From positions 620,001 through 684,000 of the forward strand of contig BROI01000015.1 in NCBI GenBank assembly GCA_027923505.1: 64,000 nucleotides of DNA. Reading direction: 5' to 3'. Under the pieces are notes generated by a model. It was not told the DNA's origin. It worked only from the letters and a program-made list of their open reading frames with translations, and did not search any database. The stretch is from Mayamaea pseudoterrestris. Taxonomy: Eukaryota. The position numbers and the translations under genes are program-made. Of this stretch, positions 82 to 50,750 are shown in pieces (within the stretch, counting starts at the first letter, position 1; every line of letters starts with the position of its first letter).

Positions 82-699
82 TCATACAGTCAGGCTTTTG
101 AGAGCATCCCGCAAACGTTCCGTCTCGTTGGAAGATTCACGCGGCAAAATCTTTGAGCCCAAGACGAAAATTGGCAGTATCGTCGAATCGGCTTGCGTGG
201 GTGGCGAAATGGACCGCAGGCGCTGTCGCTTAATCTGCGGCACCGGATAAGGATCTCCAGTCACAACTCGAGTCTGATGCGGTAGTGACTTGGTATGCCG
301 CGATTGCGTGCCACCATTGGTAACGGATGTATTACAGGATGATGTCTCATCTTGCATCAAAATGTCCACAAAGTGTCCCCATGGTGAAGTCGAGGCCAAA
401 GATTCACAGCAGTTATCAAGTGAGTCAAGTCGTACTCGAGGCGCCGGAGAAACTTCCAAATCTGCCAAGCACGGGGTCGGAGATGCGCGCTTCAGCAAAG
501 CCTTGGACTGCATGGAAGATGTATCCAAGCAGCTGCTGCTACTGCTACTCGACGCTGTCACGTTGTTTGTTTGCATGTCTTCGTCTGACACTTGACGCGG
601 TGTCGCCCGGGAAATGGATTCCATGGCTTCACCAGGCTTACTGAGGAGCATGAGATTTGACTGCCGGCGTTGGCGTCGGACGAGAGAATTCTTCGGCAT
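82..699 (-). CDS. Hypothetical Ser-rich protein (205 aa)
   Basis: ATG-initiated ORF with low complexity and a short SPWGHFVD motif; divergent from the Roco gene. No family recognised. Confidence 0.5.
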   Translation of the reverse strand: MPKNSLVRRQRRQSNLMLLSKPGEAMESISRATPRQVSDEDMQTNNVTASSSSSSSCLDTSSMQSKALLKRASPTPCLADLEVSPAPRVRLDSLDNCCESLASTSPWGHFVDILMQDETSSCNTSVTNGGTQSRHTKSLPHQTRVVTGDPYPVPQIKRQRLRSISPPTQADSTILPIFVLGSKILPRESSNETERLRDALKSLTV

Positions 700-1169
700 G
701 GTATAGTGTTAATGTAACGGAGAGAAGCTGTCGAGGTGAATATGAGAGAAAATTTCTTTTCGCGCAACAATTCTTTGATGGCAAGCTAATCAACACCAAG
801 ATACGTGAGTGTAATCGAGACAAATATTGGGTTTGCCCCTCCGAGGCATCAACACGAACGAAAGTGTCGGCTTTGACACTCATCTTTGAAGGCATCAACA
901 CTCGTGCGCGCCTTGGCATCGGCATCAATGACGATGCACCTCGTTGATGGCGAGGTTCGTCGCGACCGTCAGTCGTGCTTTCCTTGCCGGTCATTGATTG
1001 ATAAAGACTTAGTTATACCCTACGAACTTTATGACGTAGATCCGGAAATATGTCACATAAGGTTCAAGATATTATTCTATCGCACCGGTACTTACAGTTC
1101 CGAGAAACTGCTTGCAACACGCGGCATTATCGAGCCCCTTCTGCTTCCATTGGCCATGAGCATGCTCGC

Positions 1170-4100
1170 ATGAACGACGATACAATAGACAATAAGGCTA
1201 CTCACCAGAATATGAGCTACTCAACTCCTCGTCCCATTCACAATCTGCATCGAGAAATTAGGTCAACGCCGGATGAAGCAGAGCCGACTTACAGCTTTGA
1301 AAGGGAATCCTTTCTCCTTGCGTCACCCGAACTCGAAAAGGAGGATGAGTTTCACCGGAGATTGCAGCATGCTACCCATAAGACAACTGGAGGTGGCGGC
1401 GGCGGAAATGTTAATGCAGCAAACACAGCAATCAATAGCGGCGGTGGAAGTTTTTGGAGAAGCAGCAGCGCCGAGTCGTCGCAACCTTTGTTTACTAGTG
1501 CTGTGCAGCACACACCTACTCGCACTAGCAACAACACTGTTAACATCGAAACAAAAAAGAGTAAGAGTGCTGGACTCTTGTCTGCGGCTCTTTTAGATGG
1601 CAATTTTAAAAATAATAATGATCATGGAAGCATGTCAACGGTGCGTAGAAGAAAGGGGAACAGAAATTTTCTGTTCGCAAGCTTCATTCCTCATTCGATT
1701 ACTTTTTTGTCACCTTTGCAGCCAACTCCGTTCATAGCAAATCAAAGTCCTGAGCAGCATCATACCTATCGTCGGAACGATTCATCGGTTTCGATGAGTA
1801 GCGCTTCGTCCAGGGGCGACAAGAAGGGAGTCACAAAGCAACGACTTTCTGATCGACGAAACAAGCTGGATGCGCTTTCGAATGAATTTGATATGGGACA
1901 TATCATTGACGAAGACTTGGAACACGTCAACCATGAAGGGAATGAGCATGTAATGCAGCTACCGAATTTTGCAGAGATTAGTCCAGTCAGTGTTCCGCTG
2001 GATCGAAGTTCGAGCGATCAATCAACTGGATCGCTCTTTTACGGCAAGACGCCAAACAGTGGCGCAGTTTTGGGCAAGTCATCTTCGTTGATCTTTCCAA
2101 CGGGCGTGGAAAGTTTGCCGAACAATATGTCTAATGTTCCGCAATCGGAAGATAATGCCACAAAGCGGCGTAAAATAAATTTACTTCTTGACCAGTGCGA
2201 GTCGGTTCGATTTCCATTTAAAAAGAAGCTCCTGCTGAATAATCTTGGTCTTGGCCCTGCTGACTTACCTATTACGGATCTGTGCGGCACGTCCTTGGGT
2301 AACTCGCTGTATAAGCTCAGTTTGGCTGGCAATCGATTAGGTGCCATACCAGAAGTTTTGGTGAAATCGTTGCCCTCGCTTCGTCATTTGGACATTTCAC
2401 AATGCGAAATTCACCAGCTACCGGAACGATGGAATCTGCCAAAACTAACGAGGCTCAATCTCAGTCACAATCGATTAACGGACTTTCCCGAGGAGGCCAT
2501 GCTGGAAGGCTTACCGGAGTTAAACGATTTGAATTTGTATGGCAACAAGATTGCCGAAATCATCATACCCGCCAATCCAAAGCTCTTGTCTAAACTCGAA
2601 ATACTTAATCTTGGATACAATGATTTGGCATTCTTACCCGACGACCTGGATCAGATTACTTCTCTGCGCACGCTCAAAGTGATGAACAATTTTCTCGAAA
2701 AGATTTCTTCGCGGGTGTGCGACATGGACATTCGAACAATTGACGTTTCCAGCAACCCCGTCATTCAGCCACCCATTGAAACGTGCGAGCGTGGCATTTG
2801 CAGTATGAAGCGATACTATCACTGCTTGCGTATGGAGGAGCAAACCAAGCTTAAAGCGGTGGAGGAGGTCCAAAAGAAGGTGCAACGGTCACGCAAGAAG
2901 GAATTGCGCCGGCCTAAAAGCTATAGCTTTGGTGGCAACCTAAAAAAGGCGCTCTCGCAGCCTCTAAGTGGACTGACTCCTCGTAGAAACACAGAAGAGT
3001 CACCGAGTAGCTTATTAAAGGATGACTCTGCGCGAGACTCGATACTTGAGCGCGATGAGTCGACGTCAGTGTCAATTGGGCGGTCTGTGTCGAGTGCAAC
3101 TGCATCGAGTGATGCGTCAGAGCTACTTGTAATTAGATCTGAAGATCGACAAGTAAAAGCAGCCGAAACAATACTGGTAGACGATGAAGAGGCAGCTGTT
3201 GTCGCAGGTCATGATATCGTTCATCAGGACAGTTTGGACCTTGTAGCGGAGCCGCCACATGACGAAGTGACGGTTAATGATACGCTTAAGGTCATCTTTG
3301 TTGGAATGGCCATGATGGGAAAAACCAGTATGATTAAGCGTTTGATTGAAGGACGAGACGCTGTGATACCGACTCGCGACGAACGCACTGTGGGGGTTGA
3401 CATTTACGAATGGGACCCCAAAAAGGACCAACGATATACAGACATTGACTCTAGAATTGTTATTCAGGATAAGGATCTTGCCGAGACTTGCGGTGATGTC
3501 GACGTAAAGCTTAGTTGTGAGTATGGCGATTGCGCAGAAATTTTTGTCGTAGTTCTTCCAACCCTTAATCCTGCTCATTCGGCCACCTTTTCCCTTTTCA
3601 GGTTGGGATTTTGCTGGACAGCACGTCTATCACGCGACCCATGAGCTGTTCTTTTCGCCACGAGCATTGTATGTTATCGTGTGGGACCTCGGGGCTACAA
3701 ACAGAGATACGCACAAGCGAGTTAAGGATGCCTCGCATGAAGAAACGGGTGCTTTCAAGCTGACGTACGATTCTTCCGACGACGAATCAAAAGAGAAAGT
3801 TGAGGATCAACTGTACGACGAAGAAGAAAGTCGTCGCGCAGATAGAGCTTTGGAACGAGATATCGACGAGAAGTGTCAGTTTTGGATTGACTGCATTCAA
3901 AGCAGTGCACCTGGCGCTGCCATCCTCCCCGTTGCTTCATTCGCAGACTATTTTAATTCCGACGAAGATTCCGATGTAGAGGCGAAACGTCGCTGTTTAA
4001 TTTTGAAGAGTCGTCTGCTGAAACATGAAAGACGGAGGATACAAGGAATCAAAGAACGGCTAAAAGAGCTCCACGATCGAAATCGCGCCAATGACGTTGC

Positions 4101-6819
4101 GGCGGTACGGCTCCGTAAACTTTTATGCGACTTTACGCGACCAAAGATCATCTTTGGAGATGACGACAATCCAGTCGTTCGGGTCAGCGGCACTAAATAC
4201 ACTGGCTTTCGCGAATTAACAGAGAAAATCATCCATATCAGCACTGGCCAAAACAAGGCTGGGTGGCGATATCCCATTTTTCATGGTCACGTAGGTGCTC
4301 GGATTCCTCGCATGCGACTAGAAGTCCGAGAAGCAGTTAGGACCATGCGAGATCGCTTCAAAGTCGTTGAATGGAACTACTTCGTGAGTCATTTGCGTGA
4401 CCAAGGCCTAGAAAGTGCAGAAGATATAAGCGACGCGCTACATTTCCTGACGAACATTGGTGAGCTTTCATATTTTGGGGGTGTGATGACTGATTCTCAA
4501 TATATTGCCAATCCTTTCGAAGATCGAGCCAAACGCAAGAGTTCGGTCTTTTGTATTAACGAAGAGATGAAGAAGGAGCTTCAGAAAGCCGTTGATGGCA
4601 TCGAGGAAGAAGACGACGACATGGACGACGAACACGCAGTCCTCTCGATGGACGATACACGCATAACGACGCCAACTGAAGAATCCTCGGTGTCAACGTT
4701 TGAAGATGGCCAAGTGAACGGGCTATCACAATTTGTATTCTTGAATCCTCGATGGCTCGTGGCCGCGGTGGCTTGCATTTTACGGCATGATCTTGATCGC
4801 GAGATCAAAGAGACGAGGCGATTAGCGAAACTGCCCCAGAGCGACGTAGTCGTTACACGTCAGGGCAGCAGTTTTTATGATGCGCACTTGAACTGTCCTG
4901 TTATAACCGCCGATGACGCATGTATGCTCTGGCAGGCTAAAGCGATCACAAAGAAGGCTGCTAAGCGAGCGCAGGAATTTTCTAGCAACTTAGCGCTTAC
5001 GCCGTTTGAGTTTCTACAGCTACTACTCATACACTTTGGAGTTTTCGTACCAATCGATCTGAGCATTGAAAAGGCATTTCTAGGCGGCAAAGAGTACACT
5101 CACACCATGGCCGACAGCGATCACTGTGGCGACGCGGCAACGGATGTCATCGGCTGGACGCAGAACGAGAATGCCAAGTTTTTCTTCCTACCAAGTCTTC
5201 TTGGCGCATGTGAGCCTGCCGACGCATGGACTTACAAGAGCACTGATTCTTGGAAAACAACTCTTTGTCATTCCATTCTTTTCCCTGATGGTGTGCCTCC
5301 TGGCTTAATGGAGCGTTTGACAGCGAACGTGTTGAGCTCCATTTACGCAGTAAGCCATCATGACATGACGCAAAACTTATACAACCATACTGCGGAGGCA
5401 GCAACGATATGCAACGCTGGCTCTCATTCGTGTGCCTACGAAGGGGTTTTGAGCGTCAAAGAAGTATTGTGCTGGCGGACGGCATTTTTCTTGAAGCTTG
5501 GGATACGAACCCAAGAACAAGATGGTGGTACAAAGGAGAGCATTGTCGAGATTTTTGTCCACATTGCAGACCGTGATTCTCATCTCTGCGTTGGCTCCGA
5601 CTATATGGGCGTCGGAATGCGGCGGCTAATAGTGAGTGGGCGGGGTCAAGTTGGAGATGGAGGCCGGAAGATTTGGAAGGGCGGATACCTACTGGTCTTG
5701 AAGTGCGTCAACCGTGTGATGGCAACCTATGGCGGCCTGGAATATGAGCGCCAAGGGTTTTGCCCAGATTGCTTGTCGAAGAAGGCTGTTAGTGCAGCGA
5801 GTTCATGGGATTTTACTTCGATACGATCGGCCGTCTTAAGTTCTGAGGCGACTCTGCGGTGCCACCATGGACATCGCGTTGATACGAAGCTCATTGCCGG
5901 ACCTAATCATGAGTCGCTCCAGAAGATAAAGTCGGAACAATTGACTGGGGAACCAGTCACGAGCTTGGACGGTGGGGCACCGGTTCGAAACTTACTTCGC
6001 GCCGTTGTAGTGGTCGGGTTGTGGGACGGAAAGACCCAGAAGGTGGTTCGCGTCGGCTCTGGGTTTGTCGTTGATCGTAAGCGCGGCCTGATCGTCACCG
6101 CGGCACACACGCTTATTAATATTTGGGGTGACAAAAAGTATCCATATGGCGAAGATTACTACGGCCTGCCACAGGGAAAGGTTGTTATCGGTGTCATACC
6201 AGAGGATGCCGAGTTGGACGGTAGAGAGAAAGCTGTTTTTCGTTACTTTGCCAAGATTGTCGCTAAGGATCCTAGTCTAAATAAGGGAGAATGTTACGTC
6301 GACGCATGCGTACTAAGGATTACCACCAAGCTGGAGAATGATATTGGGGGCGACGGCGAAGGTTGCGGCGACCAACCGGAGAAGATTCTGGTTAACAACC
6401 CCCGAGCGTTGAAAGCTGAGAACCTGCAAAGCTTGAAGCTTACCGAGAAGTGTGAGCTCGAGGAGCAAGTGCGAATAATGGGCTACAATCAAGGAGGCGA
6501 AGGACTTCTTGCACCTGGCGAGAGTTTGAATCGATGCTTTGACTTTGGCCGGGGTTATGTTTGCATGAGATTCGCTCAAGGTGCAGCTGCGACTTCATTG
6601 TCAGACGGCGGCAAGCAACGCGAGCGCTTCAAGCCTCGCGAAGAGATTGTCGTAATGTGCCCGACTATCGGCGGTCACAGCGGTGGCGCTTGTGTTAACC
6701 AGCAGGGTGAAGTGATTGGCATCTTGAGTCGAGCTGATCCAGCGGAACGGCAGCGCTGCTACATTTCACCGACGTCTGAATGGAGGGGTTTGGTAAAAGT
6801 GGCAAAGAATACACTCTAG
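1170..6819 (+). CDS. Roco-family protein: LRR + Roc GTPase + COR + Cys/His cluster + C-terminal trypsin-like serine protease
   Basis: LRRs (LxxLxLxxNxL) at ~2230-2770 and P-loop GMAMMGKT followed by RTVGVDI. GT-AG intron 3517-3601 joins ORF 1050..3644 to ORF 3667..6819 and restores G3 (KLSCWDFAGQHVYHATHELFF). COR-like FLNPRWL and VPPGLMERL follow, then protease motifs GSGF..IVTAAH, DACVL, GHSGGA..GEVIGI. Probable in-frame intron 1641-1721; likely ATG 1170. Confidence 0.88.
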
Positions 6820-7585
6820 AGCGGCGACTTCGTCGGCTCGATTAAAGTGCGTTTTTCTGCTCCCAAGAACGGAACTCCTTCGCTAGCATCAATTTTGGGA
6901 AACTACTACCTAATCAGTTCCATGGAACGAGAAGAAATTGTAGAGTTGCAACTTGAATTTAGCTATGTGTAGCTGTGTCGAATCAAAGACCACGTCGACA
7001 CGCCACATGTTACAAGAGTACTGATTGTGTGATAGTGAAACGGCCCTGTCAAGACGGCCAGCAGATGCATGGCAGCTGCCTCCCACCGACTCATCGAACC
7101 GCGCCGGAGCTATATTTTTTAAACACTCGAGAGGAACATTTCCGTTTTCGAAAGTACGTAAACATACCCATCAATCAGATCCCGCAGCTCATGTATTGTA
7201 TGTATAGTGAGCATCAAAAGCGTTTTGTTATTCCAGTCATTTCTTATTGCTGATGGCGTGCTTGGTTCGAGCGATCATGAGGCGCTCCTCATCGTATCAA
7301 CGCCAACTGCTGCTGTCAAGAGTGTGACATCAACATCAACGTTGTAGAGCCGGTCACTGTCAATTATAGGAAGCAGATCTTTCTTACGCGTCCTCTTGCT
7401 ATTCAGATTCTCTCAGCGCTGATTGATGGACCGGAGAGGTACGTTTATCCGAATCTCGCATTGCAGTGGTGCTTGCAGTCGTCTTGTTGCAATTACGAAG
7501 CAACATTACGTTAACACGAACAGAATAAGTTGTCTTTGTTAAACTTGTACTCATTAGATTTCTTATCTTATTGCAGGCATTAATA

Positions 7586-9547
7586 ATGTACGCGGAAAAC
7601 CCATTGTCGCCTTCTCAAGAGTGCGATAGATTCCCTCCGCCATCACCAATGGACCGTATAGCCCATTGCAGCGACAGCAATGAGTCGAAGCCTCCGATTA
7701 GTGTAATTGTTCTTCAAGATACGACACCCTGCTCATTTGGTAGTAGACGCAGCGGAGCATCAAGCGCAGAAGACATAATGGATTTAAATATGCATGGGTT
7801 CGCAAGTGCGCAGAGAAAAATCGATTCTCCTGCAACTTCTACCTCATTCGCTTCCGGTTCGTTTCGATTGCAGCCGAGAAACCCAAAGTGTATTCCTTCG
7901 CCATTGCACGCGACAGAAGAAGCAAGAGGAAAGAAACGGAGGGCGCATTCGCTTTGCGAGGAGTCGGCCTTATCATCGACCTTGAAGAGCAGCGCTAGTG
8001 ATGCCTTTACGGCATTGACTCACACGACTACCAAGGGATCTCCAATGGCTTCACCTGCAGCACCTACTGATCAAGCCATGGCATATTTACAAGGCTTATC
8101 TCTTCAGTCTCCCGTCTCAGGACCAACGTACTTGAGAACGATTCCGGCGTCTGCCGAAAGTCCAGTCTCACGCGTCGGAAGCCAAAGCAATCGGTCGTCT
8201 TTTCTTAGGTACAATGCTGCGTCACCCATGTCTTTCGCCGCGGGAATGAGCCCCGGGAACGCTTCGCTCATGACAAAGTCACCTTCCCTGTCGCCGAGAC
8301 GTGCGCCCTGCACAGTGTTGTTCGGACAGACTGCTCATGGGGCAACGGACGCTGCTCGAGCGAGCACCAGCCCTGAGGCGAGCAAGCGCCCGCCCCTTCA
8401 TCAAAGCGGCATGTCGCACTTGATGCAGTCACTGGATGATACTACTGCGAAAGGAACTTTAACAATGGACATGTTAGCAAAGGAGCCGCCGCTAAGTACG
8501 ATTCATTTCCATGGCGCAGGTCAGCTCCTTACCTCGCCGGGGTCACACGATAGCAGGTTAACTGATTGTGCAATGACCTACATGGGGCATTCATCGAACC
8601 TACATTCGACAACACCTTGCAGCAAACACAGCAGGTCGTTCGAACTGGACTCTCCGTCGCGCCGAAGCGTCATTTTGTCGCCATCCCACCAGACGCCGCT
8701 GCCTAAACTGACGTTGACGCCTCGTAGTGTTGAATCACAACGTCATCGAAGCGCGGAGCTTCCTATATTTCCCATGGATCTGGATACTGACACAACAGTT
8801 CATTCGCAATCTTCGTCCATGCGCGGGCTTGAGACTCCGCCTTCAATATTGCGACAAGAGAGTCCCAGGCGAGGATCATTCTTTCCTTTGCCTGATTGGA
8901 ATGAGCCGACGCACTCCGAGTTACTTTTACAAGATACCTTGTACGAACGCTCCACGAGCACTGACGCCCTTGAAATGTACAATGTTTCGACCGCTGCACC
9001 ACCTCATGGCTCGCGCGACAATGATTCGCTCTCGGCCAGCGACGATGAGGACGACTTCTTTCTCGCTGCGCCGTCGGTTATTCACGAGGAGAAGAGAGCG
9101 TTTTCTCACAAGCAGCGCAAGATTGAGCTTTTTCCTTCCGAAATGCCTCCACGACGATTGTCGTCAGGCCATTCCCTGCGATCTGGACTTGCTTCCAACA
9201 CGAGTCTGCTTGGAATGGACTTTGTCACATCGAGTTCAAACCTCCAGAACATGGATCGCTTGAACTCCAAGGTCTTTTCGCAAGCAAGCTTTGACGAGCT
9301 TTCGAATCATTATCAAAGCCGCGCTGATTGCAACGATCCGGAGCGCGACGACGAGAGTCCAGCAGCGTCCATAGGACTCGCCTTTGACAGCAACCCTACC
9401 GTCGACATGGATCATTACCAAGATGGGCGCCGTGACTTGAGAACTCCACCTGTCAACAGAGCTCAACCGGCGTCTCCCCCACCCCTGCTACACGGCTCAA
9501 ACCATCACGCGTTTGAGTGCGACGATCACCGTCTCTACGTAAATTGA
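7586..9547 (+). CDS. Hypothetical Ser/Pro-rich, probably disordered protein (~650 aa)
   Basis: Long ORF with first ATG at 7586 and many SP/TP sites; no recognisable domain. Confidence 0.7.
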   Translation: MYAENPLSPSQECDRFPPPSPMDRIAHCSDSNESKPPISVIVLQDTTPCSFGSRRSGASSAEDIMDLNMHGFASAQRKIDSPATSTSFASGSFRLQPRNPKCIPSPLHATEEARGKKRRAHSLCEESALSSTLKSSASDAFTALTHTTTKGSPMASPAAPTDQAMAYLQGLSLQSPVSGPTYLRTIPASAESPVSRVGSQSNRSSFLRYNAASPMSFAAGMSPGNASLMTKSPSLSPRRAPCTVLFGQTAHGATDAARASTSPEASKRPPLHQSGMSHLMQSLDDTTAKGTLTMDMLAKEPPLSTIHFHGAGQLLTSPGSHDSRLTDCAMTYMGHSSNLHSTTPCSKHSRSFELDSPSRRSVILSPSHQTPLPKLTLTPRSVESQRHRSAELPIFPMDLDTDTTVHSQSSSMRGLETPPSILRQESPRRGSFFPLPDWNEPTHSELLLQDTLYERSTSTDALEMYNVSTAAPPHGSRDNDSLSASDDEDDFFLAAPSVIHEEKRAFSHKQRKIELFPSEMPPRRLSSGHSLRSGLASNTSLLGMDFVTSSSNLQNMDRLNSKVFSQASFDELSNHYQSRADCNDPERDDESPAASIGLAFDSNPTVDMDHYQDGRRDLRTPPVNRAQPASPPPLLHGSNHHAFECDDHRLYVN

Positions 9548-17166: not shown

Positions 17167-18460
17167 ATGCTAAAAATTCTTGCAACACTTCCCTTGCTAC
17201 TGCTGATAGCGGCTCCGAATGTTTTTGCAGATGCATCAACCTCCCGAGCCGCCGCTAATCTTGCTTTGTCACTCGGTCAACAATTTGATCGATGGAGCAG
17301 TCGACGACGAACAACCGACAATGACGCTGTCATACTTGCATCATCAGTAAAGTCGCGAAGCGAATCGAGAGGAGGATCTTCCTTGGCTATCAAGAGCATG
17401 ACTGCCAAGCAAAAGGCAGCCTTCAAGTATGTTCATAACACACGAGACTGGCACGATCTTTTACTTCACCATCATTTGACACGCGTCTAACACCTAACAC
17501 CACTTCACCTCATCATTCATCACCTGTAGTCTCTTTTCCGGCGGAGCTGCAGGTACTGTCGCTTCCACTTTAACAAATCCTCTTGATGTCATAAAAACGC
17601 AATTACAAAGCTCTGAACATTCCAGAACAATTGTGACAGAAACAGGCGAAATCATTCGACGGAACAAGCATGCACTCGGCGTGGCCCAGCAGATTATGCG
17701 TGATGATGGCTTGGCAGGCTTTTGGCGGGGACTACCACCGACCTTGGTGGGTATCATTCCATCACGATCCGTTTATTTTTATGCCTACCAAAAGATGAAG
17801 CACTTGCTGGGGAAAACGTCGCCGAAACACTTTAGCGAAGGCAGTCCTCCAAACGCGCTCGTTGCTGGCTTCATGGCGGGCATTGCCGGAAACACAATCA
17901 CCAATCCCATCTGGATGGTGCGCACGCGAATGCAACTACATGCCGACAAGACGGCGGGACAGCACGCCTACAATGGTTACGTTGACGCAATATCGACCAT
18001 TTTTCGGGAGGAAGGCTTGGCTGGCTTTTACAAGGGAATCACTGCTAGTTACTGGGGATGCGCGGAAGGCGCCTGCCAATTTTTGTTGTATGAAGATCTT
18101 CAACGACGACTACTGAAGCGAATTAACCGTCGACGGCTCTCGCAAGGCCTGAAGCCAACCAAGAATCTGTCGAACGCGCACTACTTTTGGTGCGCCGCCG
18201 CGTCCAAAATGTGCGCCACCATTGCCACATATCCGCACGAAGTGGCCCGGACGCGCATGCGGGAGCAAGCTCGGGAAGGCATCTTTCGATATACGGGCAT
18301 GTGGCAAACATTGGCATTGATTGCTAAGGAGGAAGGAGCAAGCAGCATGTACGCTGGTATGGGAGTGCACTTGATGAAGGTTGTTCCAAACTCGGCGTTC
18401 ATGTTTTTGACGTATGAGATTGTGAAAAGTTGGCTGGGAGAGTTTCAAGTGGTGAACTGA
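17167..18460 (+). CDS. Mitochondrial carrier family protein (SLC25A33/36, RIM2-like) with N-terminal signal-peptide-like extension
   Basis: Three PxD/W/ExxK/R repeats (NPLDVIKTQLQ, NPIWMVRTRMQ, YPHEVARTRMRE); intron 17427-17529; ATG 17167. Confidence 0.9.
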
Positions 18461-22249: not shown

Positions 22250-23140
22250 CTATTGATCCACATCGCTGCCTGCTGCATATCGAGATCTATCATAAGTCAA
22301 GCCGTAATCAATAAAGAGCTCCTCGCCAGCTAAAACGTCACGCTCAAGCCGAAACATGACGGACCGGTCCTCTATGTCTTCCTCCGTCACCACATTGACA
22401 TCCATTCCCTTTGGCGGCTCGTTGATGCGACACAGCGTCGTTGGAACCGTTCGCAACGATCCCAATATTGTTGACGTAAAGAGCCAGACTGAAAGGAATT
22501 GGCCATCACTTCCGCCGAAGCAAAATGCATCCAAAATTCCGTTCGCATTGGTTGGATCAATTATGTATTTCGAATCGGAGAATCTCCAGATATAAGATTC
22601 GCATTTTGGACATCGTCTCAGTTTGGCTAGATTTGTTTGAAAAGGAGCGACAACGCCTGGATATGTCCCAAGCGCCAAACCTTTCGGCAAATCAGTATTG
22701 GCGAAAACGCCAAGTCCAGCTCCTGGTACGGATGATTGTCGCACTTGTATCTCTTCATTTTCTCTGACAAGTAGCTTGCCACGAGGCTGATCGCAGACGG
22801 CAACGAATCCAACGTAAGTGGTTATGCCTGCAGCAAGTCGAACAAGCCAAGATGTTGCCAATGAGAGATCAGCGTTGATGGCGGTTTGAAAAGCCAACGA
22901 ATGATGACGGTAAGCATGGTTGGTTTTCCGTCTTGTTGAAAGCAGTCGCCGAGAGAATCCACTGTATTCGCGTTCCGTCTTGTGCCTGTTTAAAGGAGTT
23001 GATCGGCCTGGTTTTGGTTTTTGGAAGGACATGATGCCATGATGGATAGTCGGTGGATGAGAACGAGGAGCACTTCGCATATCTGCTGACGCTGCAGTGA
23101 ATGCCAAGCAGGCGAAGAAAAGATTCATTCGATACCTCAT
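22250..23140 (-). CDS. SET-domain protein with N-terminal signal-like peptide
   Basis: SSVPGAGLGVFA, CRINEP and AGEELFIDYG motifs; hydrophobic N-terminus. Confidence 0.85.
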   Translation of the reverse strand: MRYRMNLFFACLAFTAASADMRSAPRSHPPTIHHGIMSFQKPKPGRSTPLNRHKTEREYSGFSRRLLSTRRKTNHAYRHHSLAFQTAINADLSLATSWLVRLAAGITTYVGFVAVCDQPRGKLLVRENEEIQVRQSSVPGAGLGVFANTDLPKGLALGTYPGVVAPFQTNLAKLRRCPKCESYIWRFSDSKYIIDPTNANGILDAFCFGGSDGQFLSVWLFTSTILGSLRTVPTTLCRINEPPKGMDVNVVTEEDIEDRSVMFRLERDVLAGEELFIDYGLTYDRSRYAAGSDVDQ

Positions 23141-23780
23141 TGTCTTGCTGCTCCTAGCTGTCGCAATTTAAGAGAGTCCCTAAAGGCGACTGGACGCATC
23201 GCCATGGTCGACCGATCGAATGATGTTCAAATCTCAAGAGCGCGCGGGACGCGCTGACAAAGATACGGGAAATCTATCTTTTCAGTGCCGCTTTCTCTCA
23301 GAAGTCATCGGAGTCGAAAGCGATGCGTGAGCGACGCGCATGGGATCAACCAACGCCACAATCGAGACCCATCGAGCATCATCGAGACGCGGCAGCAGAA
23401 CATTCAAAACTCCTCTCTAATCGTGAGCAGCGTTTGATCCCTTTTTACAATCTTATTGCTGTAATTGAATTTAATGTAAGTTAATAATTGAATGAGGACG
23501 AGAAGAAGAATATTGGAGCAAATACTTTGGAGCGGCGAAAGACTCGGCGGCAGCACGATTCTGCGGCGTCTCGATGGCCTTCCATTCCCATCTTAAGCCT
23601 TTATCCAACGAATTGCGCCTGATATGCGCATCCGTGACATGGAGGATCTCAGATGCTAATAGATTGCCGTTGGAAATAGTTTACATGTGATTGTCTTCGC
23701 CGCTGTTCGGAGGCATCTGCGTTTGCTGCCACCGGCACTAAAACCATTTGGCTATTCTTCAACTAGACTCACCTAAAACC

Positions 23781-25157
23781 ATGTTGTATCACTCGCCTCG
23801 CACAGACAAGATGAGCAGCGACTCTCCATGCGCAACGATGGAGTCTCCTGCTGGAAACTTTGATAGCTTGGCCGCTTCGCTTCGTCGTTCTACAGTCGCT
23901 GCTAGGTCGGGTTCTGCAGCATTTGCAAGTAGTATTGGACGCTATTTTCCGAGATCCATGGAGCCGGCACAGGAGGATTCAAGCGGAAATGAATCTGACC
24001 CGGTACCTTATACCCGTACGCGAACGCGCGCCGTGGCTTCTCGCAATACACCCATGGCAAGTCCTGTCCGACGATCATCGCGGACCCGCTTGACGGTGGC
24101 TAGTTCACCTCGCGTGTCATCAGCTTTCGCTGCCGCCGCTAGACCTGCATCCCGATCCGTTGCGACTGCGCGGCGCCTTACTTCGGCTCCTGCCGCTCGC
24201 AAGCGCGCCGTCGGCAGTGCACCTTCCAGCTCTCGCAAGAAGGCACGCACTGGAGATTCGAGACAGTCGCCAATTGGAACCCTGAAGAATGATGCAGATT
24301 ATGACTACGACTCCAAGCCTGCTGCGGCAATTCTGCCAGACAATGGTTCGGATTGTTGCATTTGCATGACTTGTCCGGAAAGTCAGCAACGCTCCGCGGT
24401 CGATGGATGCGATCATCAATTTTGCTTTGATTGCATTGCGAAGTGGTCCAATCAGGAGAACTCTTGTCCTTTGTGCAAGGCTCGCTTTACCAAGATTACC
24501 CGCTGCAACCCATTGTCAAAGGCCGAACGCGACCAGACGAAAGCGTCCAACTCCAAGACGGTCAAGAAGAGAAGCCAGAGAATGGATTTGGCTTTTGAAA
24601 ATAGTGCGTTGGAAGGTTTGCTTGCCACCATTCAGGCTCGGAATGATCCTGGTATGCGGGCGTTTCACGCCAACGGAGGCTTTAATGGTGGCATTTTCGT
24701 TGAGACCCGAAGTATGTTTGCCCTTGGCGGTGGCCGGCGACGTGTCACCTTTCAAGAAACGTTGGATATGGACGAGGATGACGATGATGATGACTTTCTC
24801 GACAATTATGGGGGATTTTACCCACCGGGAGACGTGACTGCAGGTATATCTGGCTTCCAGCGATTGCAGCAGATGCGAACGGCGTCTCGTACTCGTGCCG
24901 CTCCTGCTGCATTTGCAGCTTCTCGAAGCGGTTCAAGTCGCTCATCACACGGTCGCAGCACGATTGGTCGGGCTCCTCACATGTTTTCTATTTCTCGCAT
25001 GTCCGCGCCATCCATGGTTGATGTGCAGCGCTCTGAACGTGCCGCGACGAGTTTGCGTCGTGGCAGTCTTGGCTCCAGCGCTGCACGACCATTGGAGATT
25101 GCGGATTCGGATGATGAAGACGAAGTTGAAGTCCTGGAAGTGATGCGGTCGACGTGA
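23781..25157 (+). CDS. C3HC4 RING-finger E3 ligase-like protein
   Basis: CCIC..CDHQFCFDCIAKW..SCPLCK; start codon uncertain (ATG 23781 or 23811). Confidence 0.85.
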   Translation: MLYHSPRTDKMSSDSPCATMESPAGNFDSLAASLRRSTVAARSGSAAFASSIGRYFPRSMEPAQEDSSGNESDPVPYTRTRTRAVASRNTPMASPVRRSSRTRLTVASSPRVSSAFAAAARPASRSVATARRLTSAPAARKRAVGSAPSSSRKKARTGDSRQSPIGTLKNDADYDYDSKPAAAILPDNGSDCCICMTCPESQQRSAVDGCDHQFCFDCIAKWSNQENSCPLCKARFTKITRCNPLSKAERDQTKASNSKTVKKRSQRMDLAFENSALEGLLATIQARNDPGMRAFHANGGFNGGIFVETRSMFALGGGRRRVTFQETLDMDEDDDDDDFLDNYGGFYPPGDVTAGISGFQRLQQMRTASRTRAAPAAFAASRSGSSRSSHGRSTIGRAPHMFSISRMSAPSMVDVQRSERAATSLRRGSLGSSAARPLEIADSDDEDEVEVLEVMRST

Positions 25158-29434: not shown

Positions 29435-29964
29435 CATTTTTGAGGCGCTGATAGCATTCTTTATATCATACTTTATTCGATCTGTATCTGCAATCTCGCG
29501 TCCCCACCTGCCACCAAACCTCATCCTCTCAACGCTCGACTTGCACCCGCGAGCTCTCTCCCAATCTTTCATTGGACGATATCATAATCTGTCCTTTAAG
29601 GCTGCCTCGGTTATCGGAAGAACAAGCTGCCCCTACTTTCGTCGACGCCGCTCGCATGGCTAGCAAGTCGGAAACAGCATTACCTCGCCTGTCTCGTATA
29701 ATTGCTCTGGTCGTGTTGCGCTCATGATCGTCCGAAAGTGGGCAGGAATTGGCGTCAAAGAATAAACTAACGAAGATCGCTTCCGGGAAACGGATTCCGT
29801 GAGTACCGTAGCGACCTTTATTATTCATTCATTCACGCTTACTCTATGATTGCGTCATGATGACGAAGCGAGGCATGCCAGTCTTGTAATTCGCCGCACT
29901 TCTGAAGCGAATATACATGACCATCACTACTACTTAAACCTTTATCACATTAACTACAACAGTC

Positions 29965-32529
29965 ATGCCGACTGCTTCTCCACAACTAGGTGTGAGTCGA
30001 AATCGATCGCTGGCGCTAGGTGATGTCTTCAAAGCCCATCAGCAGGCTGACGAGGACGATGACCCTGACGGCGACGAGGATGCCTCTCGCTTTGGTACCA
30101 CGAGCACTATTCACCATTTATATCGGTCTCATCAGCGAGGAGACGGCAGGGAAGATATGAGTGAGGTGGGCAATCAGAGTGTCTCAACAATTGGTAGCTC
30201 CCGTAGTAAAAAATCGAGTGCATCTGGGCGCATCAAAGAAACGCGAGGTAGCAGCGGACGAGCCGTCATCAAACGAACAACCTCGCGACGAGTCGACCCT
30301 TCCACAAGTGCTGCAGCTGCTAGTGGACTTATTGAGTTATTGAGTCCAAAACCTGCCACGAAGAAGCCCGTTGGAGATGACAATACGCATGACGAGGAAG
30401 AATCAATCGCAATCACAATCGAGACGTCAGAAACACCCACCGGAGGAGAGGTAACGAAACGACGACTTCCTTCGCGAGCTAAGTCGATTGATTCTGTCAT
30501 GGATCACAAGCCGCGAGGCGAGAAGCGAGGTGAATCGGGTCGGCGGACTACTGCATCGCGTCGCAATTTTTCGCACACGGGCGGAGGAGGCCCAAAGGCA
30601 TCAACTAAAGAAGACTCTGCTCCGGCATCGCCTGCCGAGCCCAAGGATGAAGCTACATCCAAGGGAACACACCGACGCTACCATTCGCATCCGGTGGAAG
30701 GCTCTAAGAAGAGTGAACATGAAAAAGGTACCGAAAAGGAGGTAGGGCGCAAGACGAGCAGTAGACAAGGCAGCAGCAACAAGGGTAGTCGGCAGCATTC
30801 TAGCAGCAGGACTGAAAAGGACAGTGCTGAGAAGGACCTCACTAGCAGTGGCAACGCTAGTAACAAAGAATCGCACCGCTCTGCACCCAGAAAGACCTCT
30901 TCGTCTCGAGTAACATCGCGCGCAACGAAAACTGATATAACTACTTCTTCACCCAGACGATCATCCAAGCCGGAACACGAAAGTAAACCCAAGCGATCAC
31001 CTAGCAAACGACAAATATCCGAGTCAAAACAATCTGCTATGCACGAAAGTGCCGTCAGCCTGAAGTATCCTTCAAACGAAGATGTTAACACGGAGCAAGT
31101 TCATTCTTCTAAGCACCATGCGCCTTCGAAGGGACGAGCAGCTAGAAAACCTTCCAACCACGAAAAGGCTAAGTCTAACAGTGATCGGCAAAAAGTTCGA
31201 GAAGTCAGCCCACCGCGAGAAAAGCTTGTAGATGATTATGGATATGGCCCAGGCAGTCCCGGAAGGAGTCCCAAAAAGTCGGTTAGTAGGCCCGATGTTG
31301 AGCTCGATGAACCTAGTGACGCGAGCAGTAGCATAGACTGCTATAAAGCTGAGCAAGGTTCCTCTGATGAGAGCAGCGATGGGTCTGATCACGTCGACAC
31401 ATCCGATGATGATGATGACGACGAGGACGGCTACGCCAACCCCTATAGTTCAAAGAGCAGACGTAAAGGGAACTATTACGATGACGACGAGGACACTGTT
31501 TTGCAGTTTGATCCCACCCAACATGATGGCGTGCAGGAAGTCAAACGAGCCGGGTCGATGCAGTACGAATTTGAAGGTGCCGATGGTACTTCAGTAGTGG
31601 GGCAAATTACCGAGCTGGCAGATCCTGTTGGCGAAATACAAATGCTTGCGGCTCAACAGGAGAATGACCGACAAAAAGACATTTTGTTTGACTTTCTAGA
31701 TGGTGATGACGAGGTGATCGGACAACATTGCGACGTGAATGAAGATTTGACATCTGACAACGACCAAGAAACGCAGGTCGACGCTGACGGAACTGAGCTG
31801 CAAATCGAAGGCAGTGCACATGAGTTCCAGCCGCCCATGCATTTCGAAATGCCTGCTCACGATGTGAACGACGACGACGAAAAACGATTAGAGCTTGATG
31901 ATCGCGATCAGCGACAGGACAGCTGGTCAAAAACAGACGATGACGATCCCCTTTCACCGACGCAAGAGGCATCCTCGAAAAAGAAAAAGGTAGTGTTAAG
32001 GCGGGCGTCGCGTAAAATTTCAGGGAATTCCACACAGCATGCTCGGTCCAAGAGCGAAGGTGTGGCGTATCATGAGAAGCACCAGCAAAGTAAGGAGAAG
32101 AAACGGCGAGACGGGCAGAAAAAGACCAGCTCTGATGACCAAGCACTGCTTATCGCCCCCTTATCGCCATCAAAAACAGTTCCTAAGGTTAAAATGTTTA
32201 GCTTTGCAGACAGCTTCCGTCTTGACAAGGATGACGATGACGACAATGAGGGAGTAGATGGGGAGGCGGATGCACCGCCGCAAGTACCTGACGTGAATCA
32301 ACCAGCGACGGCTTCGCCGACGAAGGAGTCGGGGTCGCCCAAGAAGGCCACGAAGAAGAAGGGCAAGGGACTTAGCGGCATCGGGCGCTACTTTGGCCGA
32401 AACAAACGGCAAGACGATGACGATGACATGATGTCTGTGGGAAGTACAAGCATCGGCTTCTTTAATTCAGTGAAGGCGAAACATCAGCTTCTTGGCGACG
32501 ACTCGAGTGTCGAGTCGGGTCTGTACTAA
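29965..32529 (+). CDS. Hypothetical charged low-complexity protein (854 aa), copy A
   Basis: Long ORF conserved in both copies with only in-frame indels. Confidence 0.8.
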   Translation: MPTASPQLGVSRNRSLALGDVFKAHQQADEDDDPDGDEDASRFGTTSTIHHLYRSHQRGDGREDMSEVGNQSVSTIGSSRSKKSSASGRIKETRGSSGRAVIKRTTSRRVDPSTSAAAASGLIELLSPKPATKKPVGDDNTHDEEESIAITIETSETPTGGEVTKRRLPSRAKSIDSVMDHKPRGEKRGESGRRTTASRRNFSHTGGGGPKASTKEDSAPASPAEPKDEATSKGTHRRYHSHPVEGSKKSEHEKGTEKEVGRKTSSRQGSSNKGSRQHSSSRTEKDSAEKDLTSSGNASNKESHRSAPRKTSSSRVTSRATKTDITTSSPRRSSKPEHESKPKRSPSKRQISESKQSAMHESAVSLKYPSNEDVNTEQVHSSKHHAPSKGRAARKPSNHEKAKSNSDRQKVREVSPPREKLVDDYGYGPGSPGRSPKKSVSRPDVELDEPSDASSSIDCYKAEQGSSDESSDGSDHVDTSDDDDDDEDGYANPYSSKSRRKGNYYDDDEDTVLQFDPTQHDGVQEVKRAGSMQYEFEGADGTSVVGQITELADPVGEIQMLAAQQENDRQKDILFDFLDGDDEVIGQHCDVNEDLTSDNDQETQVDADGTELQIEGSAHEFQPPMHFEMPAHDVNDDDEKRLELDDRDQRQDSWSKTDDDDPLSPTQEASSKKKKVVLRRASRKISGNSTQHARSKSEGVAYHEKHQQSKEKKRRDGQKKTSSDDQALLIAPLSPSKTVPKVKMFSFADSFRLDKDDDDDNEGVDGEADAPPQVPDVNQPATASPTKESGSPKKATKKKGKGLSGIGRYFGRNKRQDDDDDMMSVGSTSIGFFNSVKAKHQLLGDDSSVESGLY

Positions 32530-32848
32530 CTTTAAGTGGAGACACGAATACGTAAGCGGCATCGCATGCTATTGGTAGTCATCAAAACGACTTAGTGGAG
32601 TATTTTGCCAACGTATGGGGGTCGCTGCTGCTTCTGCTGCATGCTCATTGCGAGGACGATGTGTTATCAACTTGGACTGCGCGGACGAGACATGACTCTC
32701 AGTAGTTTGTGGATGCTAGCATTGTTAAAATAATTTGCATTGTATTATCTTAACACTCTATCTATGGGCACTTTGAGTTTTGGCGTTAATGTGGCAACGA
32801 GTTAGCAAGTCGGCAGCTGCGTATAAACATAGCACGAAACGTGGGTCT

Positions 32849-33450
32849 TTAAGGCACTTCAGTGAACACTATTTCCAAATCAACGTCATACTTTCTTTGT
32901 AGAAAACCAATAACCTTGTTAAGCCGGCTGTCACACTTGCCCAAGCTTGATTTAAGGTAGCGTCGGCGACCTCCACACGCCTTGCATATGCAACCAAGTA
33001 AGTAGCACCATTCGTAGTTGCGCTTGAGCCTGCATTTGTTCCTCGGGCAAAGCTAATGGAATAAAACGGAATAAGCCTGAATGTGAGATTTGCGTGTTTT
33101 ATCGCAAAATATTTCGATGACCACTATCTTCAACGAACCTTGATGGTTGTAAGCGCTCGCTCGTCATGCTGCGCTAGCAAAGCGGTCTCATCATTTTCAA
33201 TCAGCTTTCGCGCAGACGAATCCACGTCAACTTGTTCGCCAGGAGCAACATAGTCGTAGTTAGCGCCAAAACACTTTTCGATAATGTTGATCGTCTTCTG
33301 ATAAGCCTGTTGTCCGATGCGATTGATTTCCTTCTGCGATATATCTCCCTTTCCATTCAAAGATATCTGATACAGCAAGCCCGAGGCGACGACATTCCTT
33401 GTCGTGTGGCACAGCACTAGAAAGATTAAAAGTTTTCTTCTAATTGGCAT
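32849..33450 (-). CDS. Small secreted Cys-rich protein with RXL motifs, copy A
   Basis: Signal-like MPIRRKLLIFLVLCHTTRNVVA. Intron 33138-33053 joins to LCPRNKCRLKRNYEWCYLLGCICKACGGRRRYL..EVP*; the structure is conserved in copy B. Confidence 0.7.
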
Positions 33451-34601
33451 GGCAGCGATAGGATGCAAATGAGGCACTTCCTGCTTTCCTTTTGTGGAAG
33501 TTGGAAGTTGGTTGCGTGCGTATTCGCGTCGTTCGAGGGGCTGTGGAAAGCGTCAAGCGCGCCACATTGTCAATCGTGCTTTATCAAGACACTTGAGTCG
33601 AAAAGACTATGGCCCTCGAATTCGTCTTGGTTCGAATGACTGGCAACCTGCATGGAGTATTTAATCGTGGATCCAATGACCGCTACTATGCGACCATGTT
33701 CCCAGTTCCCACCCATGCGCAAAATGTTCAAGAAAAAGGCAAGCCATTGCAGCTTTGGAGCGGAGCAGGCAGCAGGCGGTGTCTGTTGAAGAAAAAGGAT
33801 CAGATATCGTTAGTTGAAAGTCAAAAAAGATAGTTACAGCCATCGAAGCATGGCGTTGCGTATTGACGAACTGACGAGTGACTGTCAAGTCGATGCATGA
33901 TGCCGCACACCGCACAATGCAAGTTCACTCAGCGAATCACTTGAGGCAACAATTCCATTTCACAGCGTCCATCAGTTGCAGTATACATGCAATCCAAAGG
34001 GATGGAGAAGCGTTCCAACAGATCGGTTGACGAAACCGCGACGCGGCATGAATGCAAGCCAATTGACAATCGACAATCAACCCATGGCTTCTGACAATTC
34101 CAATCTCTGCTAATCTCTGCTAATTGTGAAGCCGCATTTTCGTAGAGTCAGTTGTGCCTGATTCTTGGTCGACACTGTTGCCTCGAAGGATTGACAAGAG
34201 GGCGAATGACATTAACTTTTGCATTGTTCCAATCGCTGAACTGACGCTCATAACACCGGGAAATTATTAAGAAACATTTGTGGCTAGTAGAATGGTTTCG
34301 CTATAAATAGATTGTATTAGGTGGCTGGAGCGGGTCGAGCGTAGGTGCCTTTCCATGCATTGTCATGGCACGATTTCGTGTGCTGTAAAGGCCCAAGGCG
34401 CACCGGGATCAAGCCAAATTTTGTTATGCAAGTTCTCTATGTCCTATAGATGATGTATGCTCAATTTGATTGTGGGACCAAGCTCCAAAGTGAAGTTACA
34501 GGCTCAAATATTTTCTCGTTCGGTTGCATAATATATGCATCGTGCATCCCATCAGTTCTCCATTGAGAACCGGTACGATTGATGCGTACACTTTGACTCA
34601 C

Positions 34602-34697
34602 AGTGCCAAAAACTTTGATTTTCAAAGTCATTGGACTACACTCTGATCTATAGTGCCAAAAACTTTGATTTTTTTCAAAGTTATTGGACTACACTTT
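34602..34697. repeat. Two-copy ~50-bp tandem repeat with an internal palindrome (ctttga..tcaaag)
   Basis: agtgccaaaaactttgattt(ttt)tcaaagt.attggactacact occurs twice; also present in copy B (~55383-55478). Confidence 0.8.
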
Positions 34698-34856
34698 ACA
34701 ACACAGTAGGTATTTTCACGGGACTCAAGTGACGTCACGTCGACTCTTTGATGCTTGTGACCCGACAACGCAACCACGACCTCCATCGACCCTCTCTTCT
34801 CAATCCCCACTGGTTATCTCGCAGCGTCGCAATAACAGCTTTGAATTTATGTTATT

Positions 34857-36761: not shown

Positions 36762-36880
36762 TTATGTGTAGTTATGAGGATTAAAACCGCTTGAGCTATC
36801 ATGTGCGCGAAATAAGTTTTCACAAAAATTGTCGTTAAAATTTTAGATTTATATATAAAAGTGTTGAGCAACACAGCTTT

Positions 36881-38641: not shown

Positions 38642-38919
38642 ATCAGGAGTGATTTAGTGCAGTATTGCAAAGCGACAGGATGACAGGATCTACCGTAGAG
38701 CAAGAAAGTTATGGTGAGCACATCATGGTCACGACGGAGTGATGAGAGCCATGATCGAATGTCGTCACAGTAGTTTTGGCGGCATCACCCAGTTTTAGCT
38801 ACTGTATCTGTAAGTGCTCGTAATCGTATGTACAAGTTACAATATGTACTTTCGCTTTACAGTACCATTAATAGGTTTACATTCTGCAAATAAATCTATA
38901 CGGCTAGATAAGGAGATCA

Positions 38920-39960: not shown

Positions 39961-40419
39961 TCTGTGGATTGTTGTAAATCGTCGGATTAACGAAATTTGC
40001 AGGTGGCTTTGATGCAATAAATTTGAAGATTATTGAGCAACGATTAGAGGGCTGACTCGCGCACAATTCGTCGATTGCTTCTACTAGAGCAAACGGAGGT
40101 TTGATGGATCGACGGAAAAATCTTCATGGTGGTGCATGGCTTCAAACTCGCCAAGCCCATCAAGGACAAGGTTACTGATGCGAAAGTACGTCAGTCCCGT
40201 CTGGCTTCGTCCGTTCGTGGCGCGCTCGTGGTTTCGCCTTGATCTCGGCACCACAGCTTCGCTCACCATCGCGTCAGGTCTCCCTTTCGTTGATGGCTGC
40301 TGGTCTGCAACCAGAGACTGCTTCCAGCCTGGGCGACGAAATTGGTTGTGCTTGCTATCATACATTCAAGTAGGAATACACGTAGGATATCGCATAAGCT
40401 ACTGCATAAACGAGCAACC

Positions 40420-41761: not shown

Positions 41762-41876
41762 GCATACTAATGAATTACAGTTAAACTAGCTCATTCTTCT
41801 TTTATGTAAAGGCTGTTGTTACAAATGAATGGAATGCACAAATTGATTATTCGTTGTCGCTCGCCTGCGGAACGCA

Positions 41877-50674: not shown

Positions 50675-50750
50675 GTAATTCGCCGCACCTCTGAAGCAAA
50701 TACACAAAACCATCACTACTTAAACCTTTATCACACCAACTACAAAAGTC

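Follow-up and report, generated by a model that had tools for sequence, protein, structure and literature searches.

A stretch of 64,000 nucleotides of the Mayamaea pseudoterrestris genome (assembly GCA_027923505.1, contig BROI01000015.1, positions 620,001 to 684,000 of the forward strand; hereafter the window, numbered from its first letter) carries at 1170-6819 on its plus strand one real, expressed gene, which gives one spliced mRNA and one protein of 1827 amino acids. The protein consists, in this order, of a disordered N-terminus, about seven leucine-rich repeats (LRRs), a Roc GTPase domain, a COR region, a CCCH zinc-like knot and a protease. We posit, at a probability of roughly 60%, that it is a cytosolic signalling protein of the Roco family whose output is a GTP-switched, oligomerisation-dependent protease of the HtrA type instead of a kinase. 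As judged from its motifs and those of its relatives, the gene is the GTPase-competent member of a diatom Roco-protease family in which canonical GTPase motifs are confined to the LRR class. Proteins of this architecture have been catalogued in print before, in PMC11378527, and the protein itself is annotated only as hypothetical; what is added here, from alignments and structural models, is the predicted HtrA assignment, the invariant catalytic triad, the putative zinc knot, Roc inserts together with an atypical G4 motif, three classes of N-terminus in which GTPase motifs are lost to different degrees, and an evolutionary signature that argues against a receptor role.

Two long open reading frames (ORFs) on the plus strand of the window DNA, 1035-3644 and 3553-6819, overlap in different frames. 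Left unspliced, the upstream ORF matches positions 1-43 of the Pfam Roc profile and the downstream ORF positions 61-100, and these halves merge into one domain once 3517-3601 is spliced out, which shows that the join is real; it reads ...KLS-C-WDFAGQ... and restores the G3 motif of Roc behind strand 3. The full coding sequence (1170-1640, 1722-3516 and 3602-6819; 5484 nt) is free of in-frame stops and translates exactly into MPSEU_000740300, a 100% identical NCBI entry of 1827 residues from this pennate diatom that is annotated as a hypothetical protein. Its first methionine is almost invariant in an alignment with 20 diatom homologues. The gene is laid out as follows.

1170..1640, plus strand: exon 1, residues 1-157, with the start ATG at 1170; Ser/Asn-rich N-terminal part, little conserved
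1641..1721, plus strand: intron 1, 81 nt, in frame, GTGCGT..TTGCAG; skipped by contigs of runs X1, X3 and X4
1722..3516, plus strand: exon 2, residues 158-755 and the first base of codon 756; remaining N-terminal region, LRRs, linker and first half of Roc
3517..3601, plus strand: intron 2, 85 nt, GTGAGT..TTTCAG; splits codon 756 just ahead of the G3 motif
3602..6819, plus strand: exon 3, end of codon 756 (two bases), residues 757-1827 and the stop at 6817-6819

An earlier note on this DNA had placed an intron at 3517-3601 and predicted a single protein of about 1800 residues. The intron was borne out by the reassembly of Roc, by the NCBI protein and by spliced contigs in three public runs, and the single spliced protein stood as well; the note had missed the intron at 1641-1721, which is absent from the annotated protein and which, if read through, would give 1854 residues instead of the true 1827. 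The data on splicing came from four public runs (X1-X4) of one study, with 95-99% likeness and the kind of run not on record, and splicing was read from GT..AG joints in the assembled contigs of that study, not from read counts. In contigs of X1, X3 and X4 precisely 3517-3601 is left out, the shorter flank of the joint measuring 255 letters, and the 81-nt intron 1641-1721 is missing from the same three runs, likewise with GT..AG ends. In each of the three, single contigs (one of them running from 2837-3516 straight into 3602-4040) span the junction within Roc, which contradicts separate transcription of the two ORFs, the outcome that the earlier note had held would overturn its reading. Run X2 has the unspliced form across 3492-4040 and alone covers the flanks at 900-1113 and 6892-7300; the gap of the other three runs in these flanks was not used as evidence. 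Runs X1, X3 and X4 are best read as spliced RNA. Strain or allele differences fall at third codon positions in 34 of the 40 cases listed (138 further differences lie beyond these), a bias that points to purifying selection across all three exons.

Length variants were also seen in the runs. At 3172, in the variable linker that connects LRR and Roc, 6 nt are missing from all four, which leaves the frame intact, and a single run gains 6 nt after 1391; both represent strain or allele variation and are restricted to poorly conserved segments.

The domains encoded by the spliced gene are given below with their Pfam scores.

2268..2810, plus strand: LRR domain, residues ~340-520; LRR_4 64.4 bits, LRR_8 58.7 bits
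3276..4230, plus strand: Roc GTPase, residues ~676-965, interrupted by intron 2; Roc 51.6 bits against a cut-off of 27 when spliced
4231..5745, plus strand: COR region, residues ~966-1470; COR-A match at residues 995-1049 (4318-4482), then a COR-B-like alpha/beta part
5761..5874, plus strand: Cys-x2-Cys ... Cys-x3-His cluster (C1476, C1479, C1509, H1513)
6001..6816, plus strand: predicted HtrA-type (S1C) serine protease, residues ~1556-1827; Trypsin_2 47.3 bits, residues 1574-1796

Conservation was expressed as mean pairwise identity, or as invariance, among the 20 diatom homologues. Identity amounts to 0.60 in the LRR, 0.64 in Roc, 0.56 in COR and 0.65 in the protease, and the remaining segments are variable: 0.31 in residues 1-339, 0.21 in the linker of residues 521-675, 0.21 in an acidic, low-confidence insert at residues ~1050-1128 and 0.24 in the linker of residues 1526-1555. 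The LRR, Roc, CPDC..CHHGH and protease motifs named in the earlier note were confirmed at their places in the spliced numbering and by Pfam. As for its list of Pfam families, LRR, Roc and Trypsin_2 were matched at the scores given above, and COR-A at 32.5-34.1 bits is slightly below the cut-off of 35.3 (32.5 on the spliced protein).

The Roc domain of the window protein has a P-loop GMAMMGKTS (GMAMMGKT from residue 685; K691 at 3321-3323), a switch-I T713 (3387-3389), a G3 motif WDFAGQ from residue 757 (3604-3621, with D758..G761-Q762), a G4-like VASFAD with D871 (3946-3948), and VSGTK with S951. The P-loop G..GKTS, T713, D758..G761-Q762, D871 and S951 are invariant in all 20 diatoms; G4 has the form VASFxD rather than NKxD, with its Asp still invariant (20/20). 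By these alignments the GTPase motifs of the LRR-type protein are canonical and conserved. Two inserts mark the domain as well, an acidic one behind strand 4 and a long helical one ahead of G5. The family profile matched LRRK1 at E 1.1e-20, LRRK2 at 1e-18, the archaeal Roco protein 4wnr at 9e-14 and the Chlorobium tepidum Roco protein 3dpu at 4.9e-12, and reached Rabs only at about 1e-6, so that Roco chains are ahead by more than five orders of magnitude in E-value. Kinase families were absent from the Pfam matches of the spliced protein at E up to 1, and its Pfam scan likewise held no NACHT or NB-ARC match.

One continuous stretch of this profile aligns with residues 632-943 of LRRK1, which comprise Roc and COR-A, at the same E of 1.1e-20. 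In Foldseek, dimeric LRRK1 (8e05_A) ranked first for a model of the C-terminal 1071 residues, with E 1.4e-12 over 966 columns, making LRRK1 the best match by structure as well as by profile. Between COR and the protease sits the Cys/His cluster, with the motifs CPDC at residue 1476 and CHHGH at residue 1509, all four residues of which are invariant in 20 of 20 diatoms; in a wider set of 45 sequences the three Cys are invariant and the His is kept in at least 90%. AlphaFold2 modelled it as a compact mini-domain of short strands and helices, with a predicted local distance difference test score (pLDDT) of ~84-94. The cluster is probably a small zinc-binding knot; in the ESM Atlas this region found no match that could be used.

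The protease has its catalytic residues at H1591 (6106-6108), D1656 (6301-6303) and S1782 (6679-6681), within the motifs TAAH (from residue 1588), DACVL (1656) and GHSGG (1780), and these residues and their flanking glycines are invariant in all 20 diatom homologues, in agreement with the earlier note, which had described all three catalytic motifs as intact. From an alignment of 45 sequences, AlphaFold2 modelled the C-terminal 372 residues with a mean pLDDT of 89.4 and a predicted template modelling score (pTM) of 0.84. The top of the model's Foldseek list is made up of MarP (Rv3671c), DegP, DegS, DegQ, Deg2 and HTRA1, at E ~1e-12 to 1e-11. VIA gave Z 21-23, rmsd 2.3-3.5 A, 181-202 aligned residues and 17-26% identity to DegQ, DegP, DegS, AlgW, HTRA1, Deg1, Deg5 and Deg9, the best match being DegQ 3stj (Z 23.2, rmsd 2.5 A, 192 aligned). 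Consistent with this, the family profile matches HTRA1 (E 6.2e-12) and HTRA2, and places GSGF..GLIVTAaHV and GGhSGGPcVN on the catalytic His and Ser motifs of HTRA1. Profiles were needed for these assignments, as a single-sequence search of the PDB with the C-terminal 1071 residues yielded weak matches only (DegP at E ~0.9). A PDZ domain was not found by Pfam at E up to 1, and the protein stops 31 residues past the Trypsin_2 match. Modelled fold and profile together indicate that the C-terminal domain is an HtrA/S1C-like chymotrypsin-type fold without PDZ and not a canonical HtrA, which upholds the trypsin-like protease of the earlier note as regards the fold and narrows it to this family. With an intact, invariant triad in a predicted HtrA fold, the protease looks active.

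A prediction with three copies of the protease domain scored 0.66 against 0.00 for the best of three controls, with at least 44% of contacts shared between runs and pLDDT of at least 67; it was made without the alignment, and the score is calibrated on two copies, not three. Of 30 proteins solved as homodimers, 21 reached the mark in that calibration, and of 23 solved as single chains none did; among eukaryotic proteins 17 of 29 reached it overall, but only 1 of the 7 without an older solved relative. The in-silico trimer shows HtrA likeness and may reflect memory of solved HtrA trimers.

Ahead of these domains, residues 1-339 are Ser/Asn-rich, with a few short conserved motifs. In the alignment consensus GGSFWR, RSxSDQSTxSLxY and GKxxSLIFPTGV (window ~1170-2267) are kept across diatoms; they might serve, ahead of the LRR, in phosphorylation or docking, and are reminiscent of the regulatory Ser cluster that LRRK2 carries upstream of its LRR. 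No N-terminal hydrophobic segment was detected, the maximum Kyte-Doolittle mean over 19 residues being -0.29 in the first 70 residues, which agrees with the statement of the earlier note that a signal peptide is not evident; the protein is predicted to be cytosolic, with neither signal nor transit peptide. The LRR comprises seven LxxLxLxxN-type repeats, starting at residues 353, 377, 399, 424, 449, 472 and 494, and lies entirely within exon 2. Sub-threshold NCBIfam similarity of the LRR to bacterial LRR effector families, and weak HtrA matches in the same search, were set aside as generic LRR likeness and not membership.

A search with the C-terminal 1071 residues found 323 proteins at E <=0.001 among 7,999 candidates scored. 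All 120 matches listed carry Trypsin_2 and 79 of them also Roc; the 41 without Roc are 613-1061 residues long, stem from contigs of mostly a few kb and are most simply truncated gene calls. Identity over the 1071 residues is 47-75% among the 120 matches listed, from pennate as well as centric diatoms, and all rows with an organism name are diatoms (Mayamaea, Nitzschia, Epithemia, Thalassionema, three Thalassiosira, Skeletonema and Bacillariaceae); one listed row has a JGI code only, which we take to be Pseudo-nitzschia. Several homologues are MMETSP transcript ORFs marked complete, and a single LRR-type copy was seen in each named genome. The LRR-type family looks like a set of orthologues across pennate and centric diatoms that is neither expanded nor diversifying, and the comparisons indicate that the whole LRR-type protein is under purifying selection.

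An exhaustive HMMER search with the zinc knot and protease as query retrieved 309 clusters at E <=0.001, 160 of them at <=1e-30, from 1.84 billion representatives, the long ones mostly measuring up to 2123 residues; that only 309 clusters were reached suggests that the protease domain is a narrow branch well apart from ordinary HtrAs. When prokaryotic species, each represented by one genome, were scanned with the same part of the protein, 23 pattern matches and no relatives came out; the scan reaches close relatives only, and a bacterial origin may still be compatible with its result.

A Pfam survey covered 30 of the 150 listed relatives of the zinc-knot and protease part. Trypsin_2 was found in 29, Roc and/or COR-A in 21 and LRRs in 6, and two relatives have WWE and U-box domains ahead of Roc-COR-protease. 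Five diatom paralogues with such WWE and U-box heads were seen, and a Seminavis robusta protein belongs to this class; the Seminavis members are named 'NADH dehydrogenase complex I assembly factor 6', which is evidently wrong. A third large class has no recognisable N-terminal domain and is confined to diatoms where its members are named. This class (type 2) includes a second Mayamaea protein, MPSEU_000739300 (1495 residues), whose gene precedes the Roco gene by about 10 locus tags, on the same contig of 788,239 bp and outside the window. Trypsin_2 is matched in it at 56.4 bits and Roc weakly at 21.2 bits; with a degenerate P-loop and no G4 Asp, the protein looks from its sequence like a pseudo-GTPase partner. 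In tblastn, a Roc-COR-protease paralogue matched only the Roco gene within the window.

An alignment of the Roc region of 18 family members separates the classes by their GTPase motifs. The LRR class keeps GxxxxGK[ST], the switch-I Thr and DxxGQ in 5 of 5 members; none of the 4 WWE members is canonical, with Thr instead of the P-loop Lys, and neither is any of 6 members of the third class, in which the second P-loop Gly and the G4 Asp are lost. The acidic insert and the ADRALExDIxEKV helix that follows it are common to all three classes, which therefore form one lineage. On this evidence the family is built on one Roc-COR-zinc-knot-protease chassis with swappable N-termini, either LRR, WWE and U-box, or unrecognised. 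The sensor-switch-effector layout proposed in the earlier note draws support from the paralogues, which keep this chassis and swap the LRR for WWE and U-box; gating by GTP-dependent dimerisation, the other part of that proposal, we would only infer.

Like LRRK1 and LRRK2, the window protein has an LRR, then a Roc-COR tandem and then an enzymatic output, with canonical G1, G2 and G3. It differs from them in that the output is an HtrA-type protease and not a kinase followed by WD40, in the lack of ankyrin or armadillo repeats, and in the acidic and helical Roc inserts, the VASFxD form of G4 and the CCCH knot between COR and output. The same LRR-Roc-COR core is found in prokaryotes (Chlorobium tepidum Roco, 3dpu/6hlu; Methanosarcina, 4wnr), where, unlike in the window protein, neither a protease nor another enzymatic output is attached and where a nucleotide-dependent dimer-monomer cycle has been demonstrated. 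With the HtrA S1C proteases (DegP, DegQ, DegS, MarP, plant Deg1/2/5/9, human HTRA1/2) the C-terminal domain shares its predicted fold and the alignment of the GSGF...TNAHV-type His and GNSGGP-type Ser motifs; unlike them it has no PDZ domain, signal peptide or transit peptide, stands at the C-terminus of a 1827-residue GTPase and has inserts between the catalytic residues.

The catalogue in PMC11378527 (2024) describes a 'group 3' of brown-algal ROCOs (three members from four of these algae) with an extra C-terminal peptidase domain (IPR009003), and places them in a clade with other ROCOs of stramenopiles, alveolates and rhizarians (SAR), some of which also have a C-terminal peptidase. These group 3 proteins resemble the window protein in their LRR-ROC-COR with a C-terminal peptidase and in their low copy number, orthology being presumed from architecture alone. 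In what could be consulted of it, the catalogue gives no functional characterisation of peptidase ROCOs and describes neither an HtrA fold nor catalytic residues, a zinc cluster or paralogue classes. A literature search for a functional or structural study of a Roco-protease found only the cataloguing statement of PMC11378527; PMC7159879 names Roc-COR and Roco in its references alone, and PMC11788884 and PMC9334734 did not bear on the subject. The earlier note, which knew of no characterised example, was thus right as to function, but the architecture itself had already been listed there.

We propose that the conserved LRR would bind a conserved endogenous partner or ligand, and that Roc-COR would cycle between GDP and GTP and so alter the self-association of the protein, as nucleotide state does in bacterial Roco proteins and LRRK2. 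The changed self-association would control the assembly or loop ordering of the C-terminal HtrA domain. Studied HtrAs are active as oligomers and are otherwise regulated by PDZ domains, and the HtrA domain here is, like other HtrAs, probably active only as an oligomer. The output would be limited proteolysis of cytosolic targets, for example in stress or cell-fate decisions.

Several points weigh against this mechanism. The COR-A match stays under its Pfam cut-off and the model of the C-terminal 1071 residues is only moderate (pLDDT 76.5, pTM 0.60). A G4 of VASFxD in place of NKxD could mean an unusual nucleotide specificity or affinity. Roco proteins dimerise and HtrAs trimerise, which leaves two symmetries to combine. 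Two paralogue classes with degenerate P-loops keep the protease; the chassis can evidently work without a canonical GTPase cycle in these, so that GTP gating is less likely to hold throughout the family. For all members, binding and hydrolysis of GTP, protease activity, zinc coordination and oligomeric state are predictions.

A different role that the domain layout brings to mind is that of an innate-immune or cell-death receptor, in which the LRR would sense a pathogen or damage, Roc-COR would oligomerise in the manner of an NLR, and the protease would execute death or cleave an executioner. We consider this unlikely. The tripartite order of sensor, NTPase and effector follows the logic of NLR/STAND proteins and of bacterial NTPase-protease defence, where, as far as the accessible literature goes, protease effectors are gated by nucleotide modules, NTP-gated trypsin-like effectors among them; the switch here is a Ras-like Roc and not a NACHT/NB-ARC STAND ATPase, and the LRR is conserved, not diversifying. 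The paralogues replace the sensor by WWE and U-box, and WWE domains recognise poly-ADP-ribose, which marks stress or damage. Among relatives of HtrA, HTRA2/Omi and yeast Nma111 promote apoptosis. Immune LRRs normally diversify, whereas the LRR of the window protein is about as conserved (0.60) as Roc (0.64) and the protease (0.65), the matches listed across pennate and centric diatoms are ortholog-like at 47-75% identity over 1071 residues, and one LRR-type copy occurs per named genome. Nor is the family expanded, clustered or exon-shuffled, its LRR lying inside one exon. Expanded, exon-shuffled brown-algal LRR-ROCOs have been proposed as immune receptors (PMC3341825, PMC11378527), and these behave in the opposite way to the conserved, low-copy diatom protein; according to PMC11378527, SAR species other than brown algae have at most four ROCOs. 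Neither Mayamaea locus tag occurs in two supplement files of the Mayamaea genome paper, and a search for infection or stress expression data found none. As the LRR is as conserved as the catalytic domains and the family is not expanded, the immunity module suggested in the earlier note finds no support in its low copy number and orthologue pattern across diatoms. A role in cell death or stress is possible, hinted at by analogy with HTRA2, Nma111 and DAPK1 and by the WWE/U-box paralogues.

It is also improbable, in our view, that the protein is a housekeeping quality-control protease, that is, a cytosolic HtrA-like chaperone-protease for which LRR and Roc-COR serve as scaffold or localisation modules and the nucleotide is structural. 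Proteins of the HtrA family are classically quality-control proteases, and high ortholog-like conservation with low copy number would fit such a role, as would paralogues that retain an intact protease domain behind degenerate P-loops, from which it follows that the GTP switch is dispensable for some members. In the LRR class, however, all GTPase motifs including the switch-I Thr and the G3 Gln are invariant (20/20), which argues for a working cycle. Moreover, neither PDZ nor another known substrate-tail-binding domain was found by Pfam, the 309 clusters among 1.84 billion proteins speak for a narrow, specialised branch, and fusions of quality-control HtrAs with signalling GTPases are not known.

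Self-processing, by which the protease would cut its own variable linkers after activation and free an LRR-Roc fragment or the protease, appears very unlikely as the main function but is compatible with the GTP-switched protease proposed above and does not exclude it. Three long low-confidence linkers (residues 521-675, 1050-1128 and 1526-1555, with identities of 0.21, 0.21 and 0.24) would offer sites, and many shorter database entries consist of the COR-protease or protease part alone; these entries, 41 of the 120 matches listed, are most simply truncated gene calls on short contigs. An annotation artefact, either a merger of neighbouring LRR-Roc and COR-protease genes or a pseudogene, is suggested by the genomic frame that is broken at 3517-3601, leaving the halves as separate ORFs when unspliced, but is effectively refuted by an intron that cuts the Roc domain itself and whose removal restores it, by single contigs across the junction in three runs, by Roc and Trypsin_2 in one protein in 79 of the 120 listed homologues, including complete MMETSP ORFs, and by the absence of in-frame stops together with the bias of differences to third positions.

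More tentatively, and still rather doubtfully, the GTP-switched protease may be one branch of a three-branch diatom Roco-protease system with a shared chassis and interchangeable sensors. A GTPase that still works would be left in the LRR branch alone; the other two, with pseudo-GTPases, may assemble with that branch via COR dimers and HtrA-type trimers, the WWE and U-box head would act as a poly-ADP-ribose reader and ubiquitin ligase, and the different inputs would converge on one burst of limited proteolysis that decides between stress and cell-death fates.

The surroundings of the gene in the window give no functional clue. The flanking ORFs 82-699 (minus strand) and 7586-9547 (plus strand) have no Pfam match. 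Further ORFs nearby encode a mitochondrial carrier (17498-18460, plus strand), a SET protein (22250-23167, minus strand) and a RING finger protein (23742-25157, plus strand), with no apparent link to the Roco gene. Elsewhere in the window, 29886-42401 and 50675-64000 form a segmental duplication of at least 12.5 kb with 94.5-95.9% identity and an offset of ~20.8 kb, the second copy of which runs past the window end. It holds at least four long ORFs, namely 863/861 residues, 638/638 residues, an ORF with an IRK_C domain (minus strand) and one with an S1 RNA-binding domain.

For LRRK2, the kinase of Parkinson's disease, the main question still to be answered is how Roc-COR governs the output enzyme, and the activation mechanism of HtrA proteases, in which loops become ordered upon oligomerisation, is well understood. 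A natural Roco protein with a simple, easily assayed protease output would give an independent read-out of Roc-COR coupling, and if the three-branch system holds true it would correspond to LRRK2 or DAPK1 with proteolysis as the output, and serve as a simple model from nature for Roc-COR output control. For diatoms, the protein is a candidate for the poorly defined proteolytic steps in stress and cell-fate signalling, conserved in both pennate and centric lineages, and the WWE and U-box paralogues suggest a connection to ADP-ribosylation and ubiquitin signalling. The expectation that stramenopile LRR-Rocos are candidate pathogen receptors throughout needs correcting, since the evolutionary signature here is that of a conserved core component.

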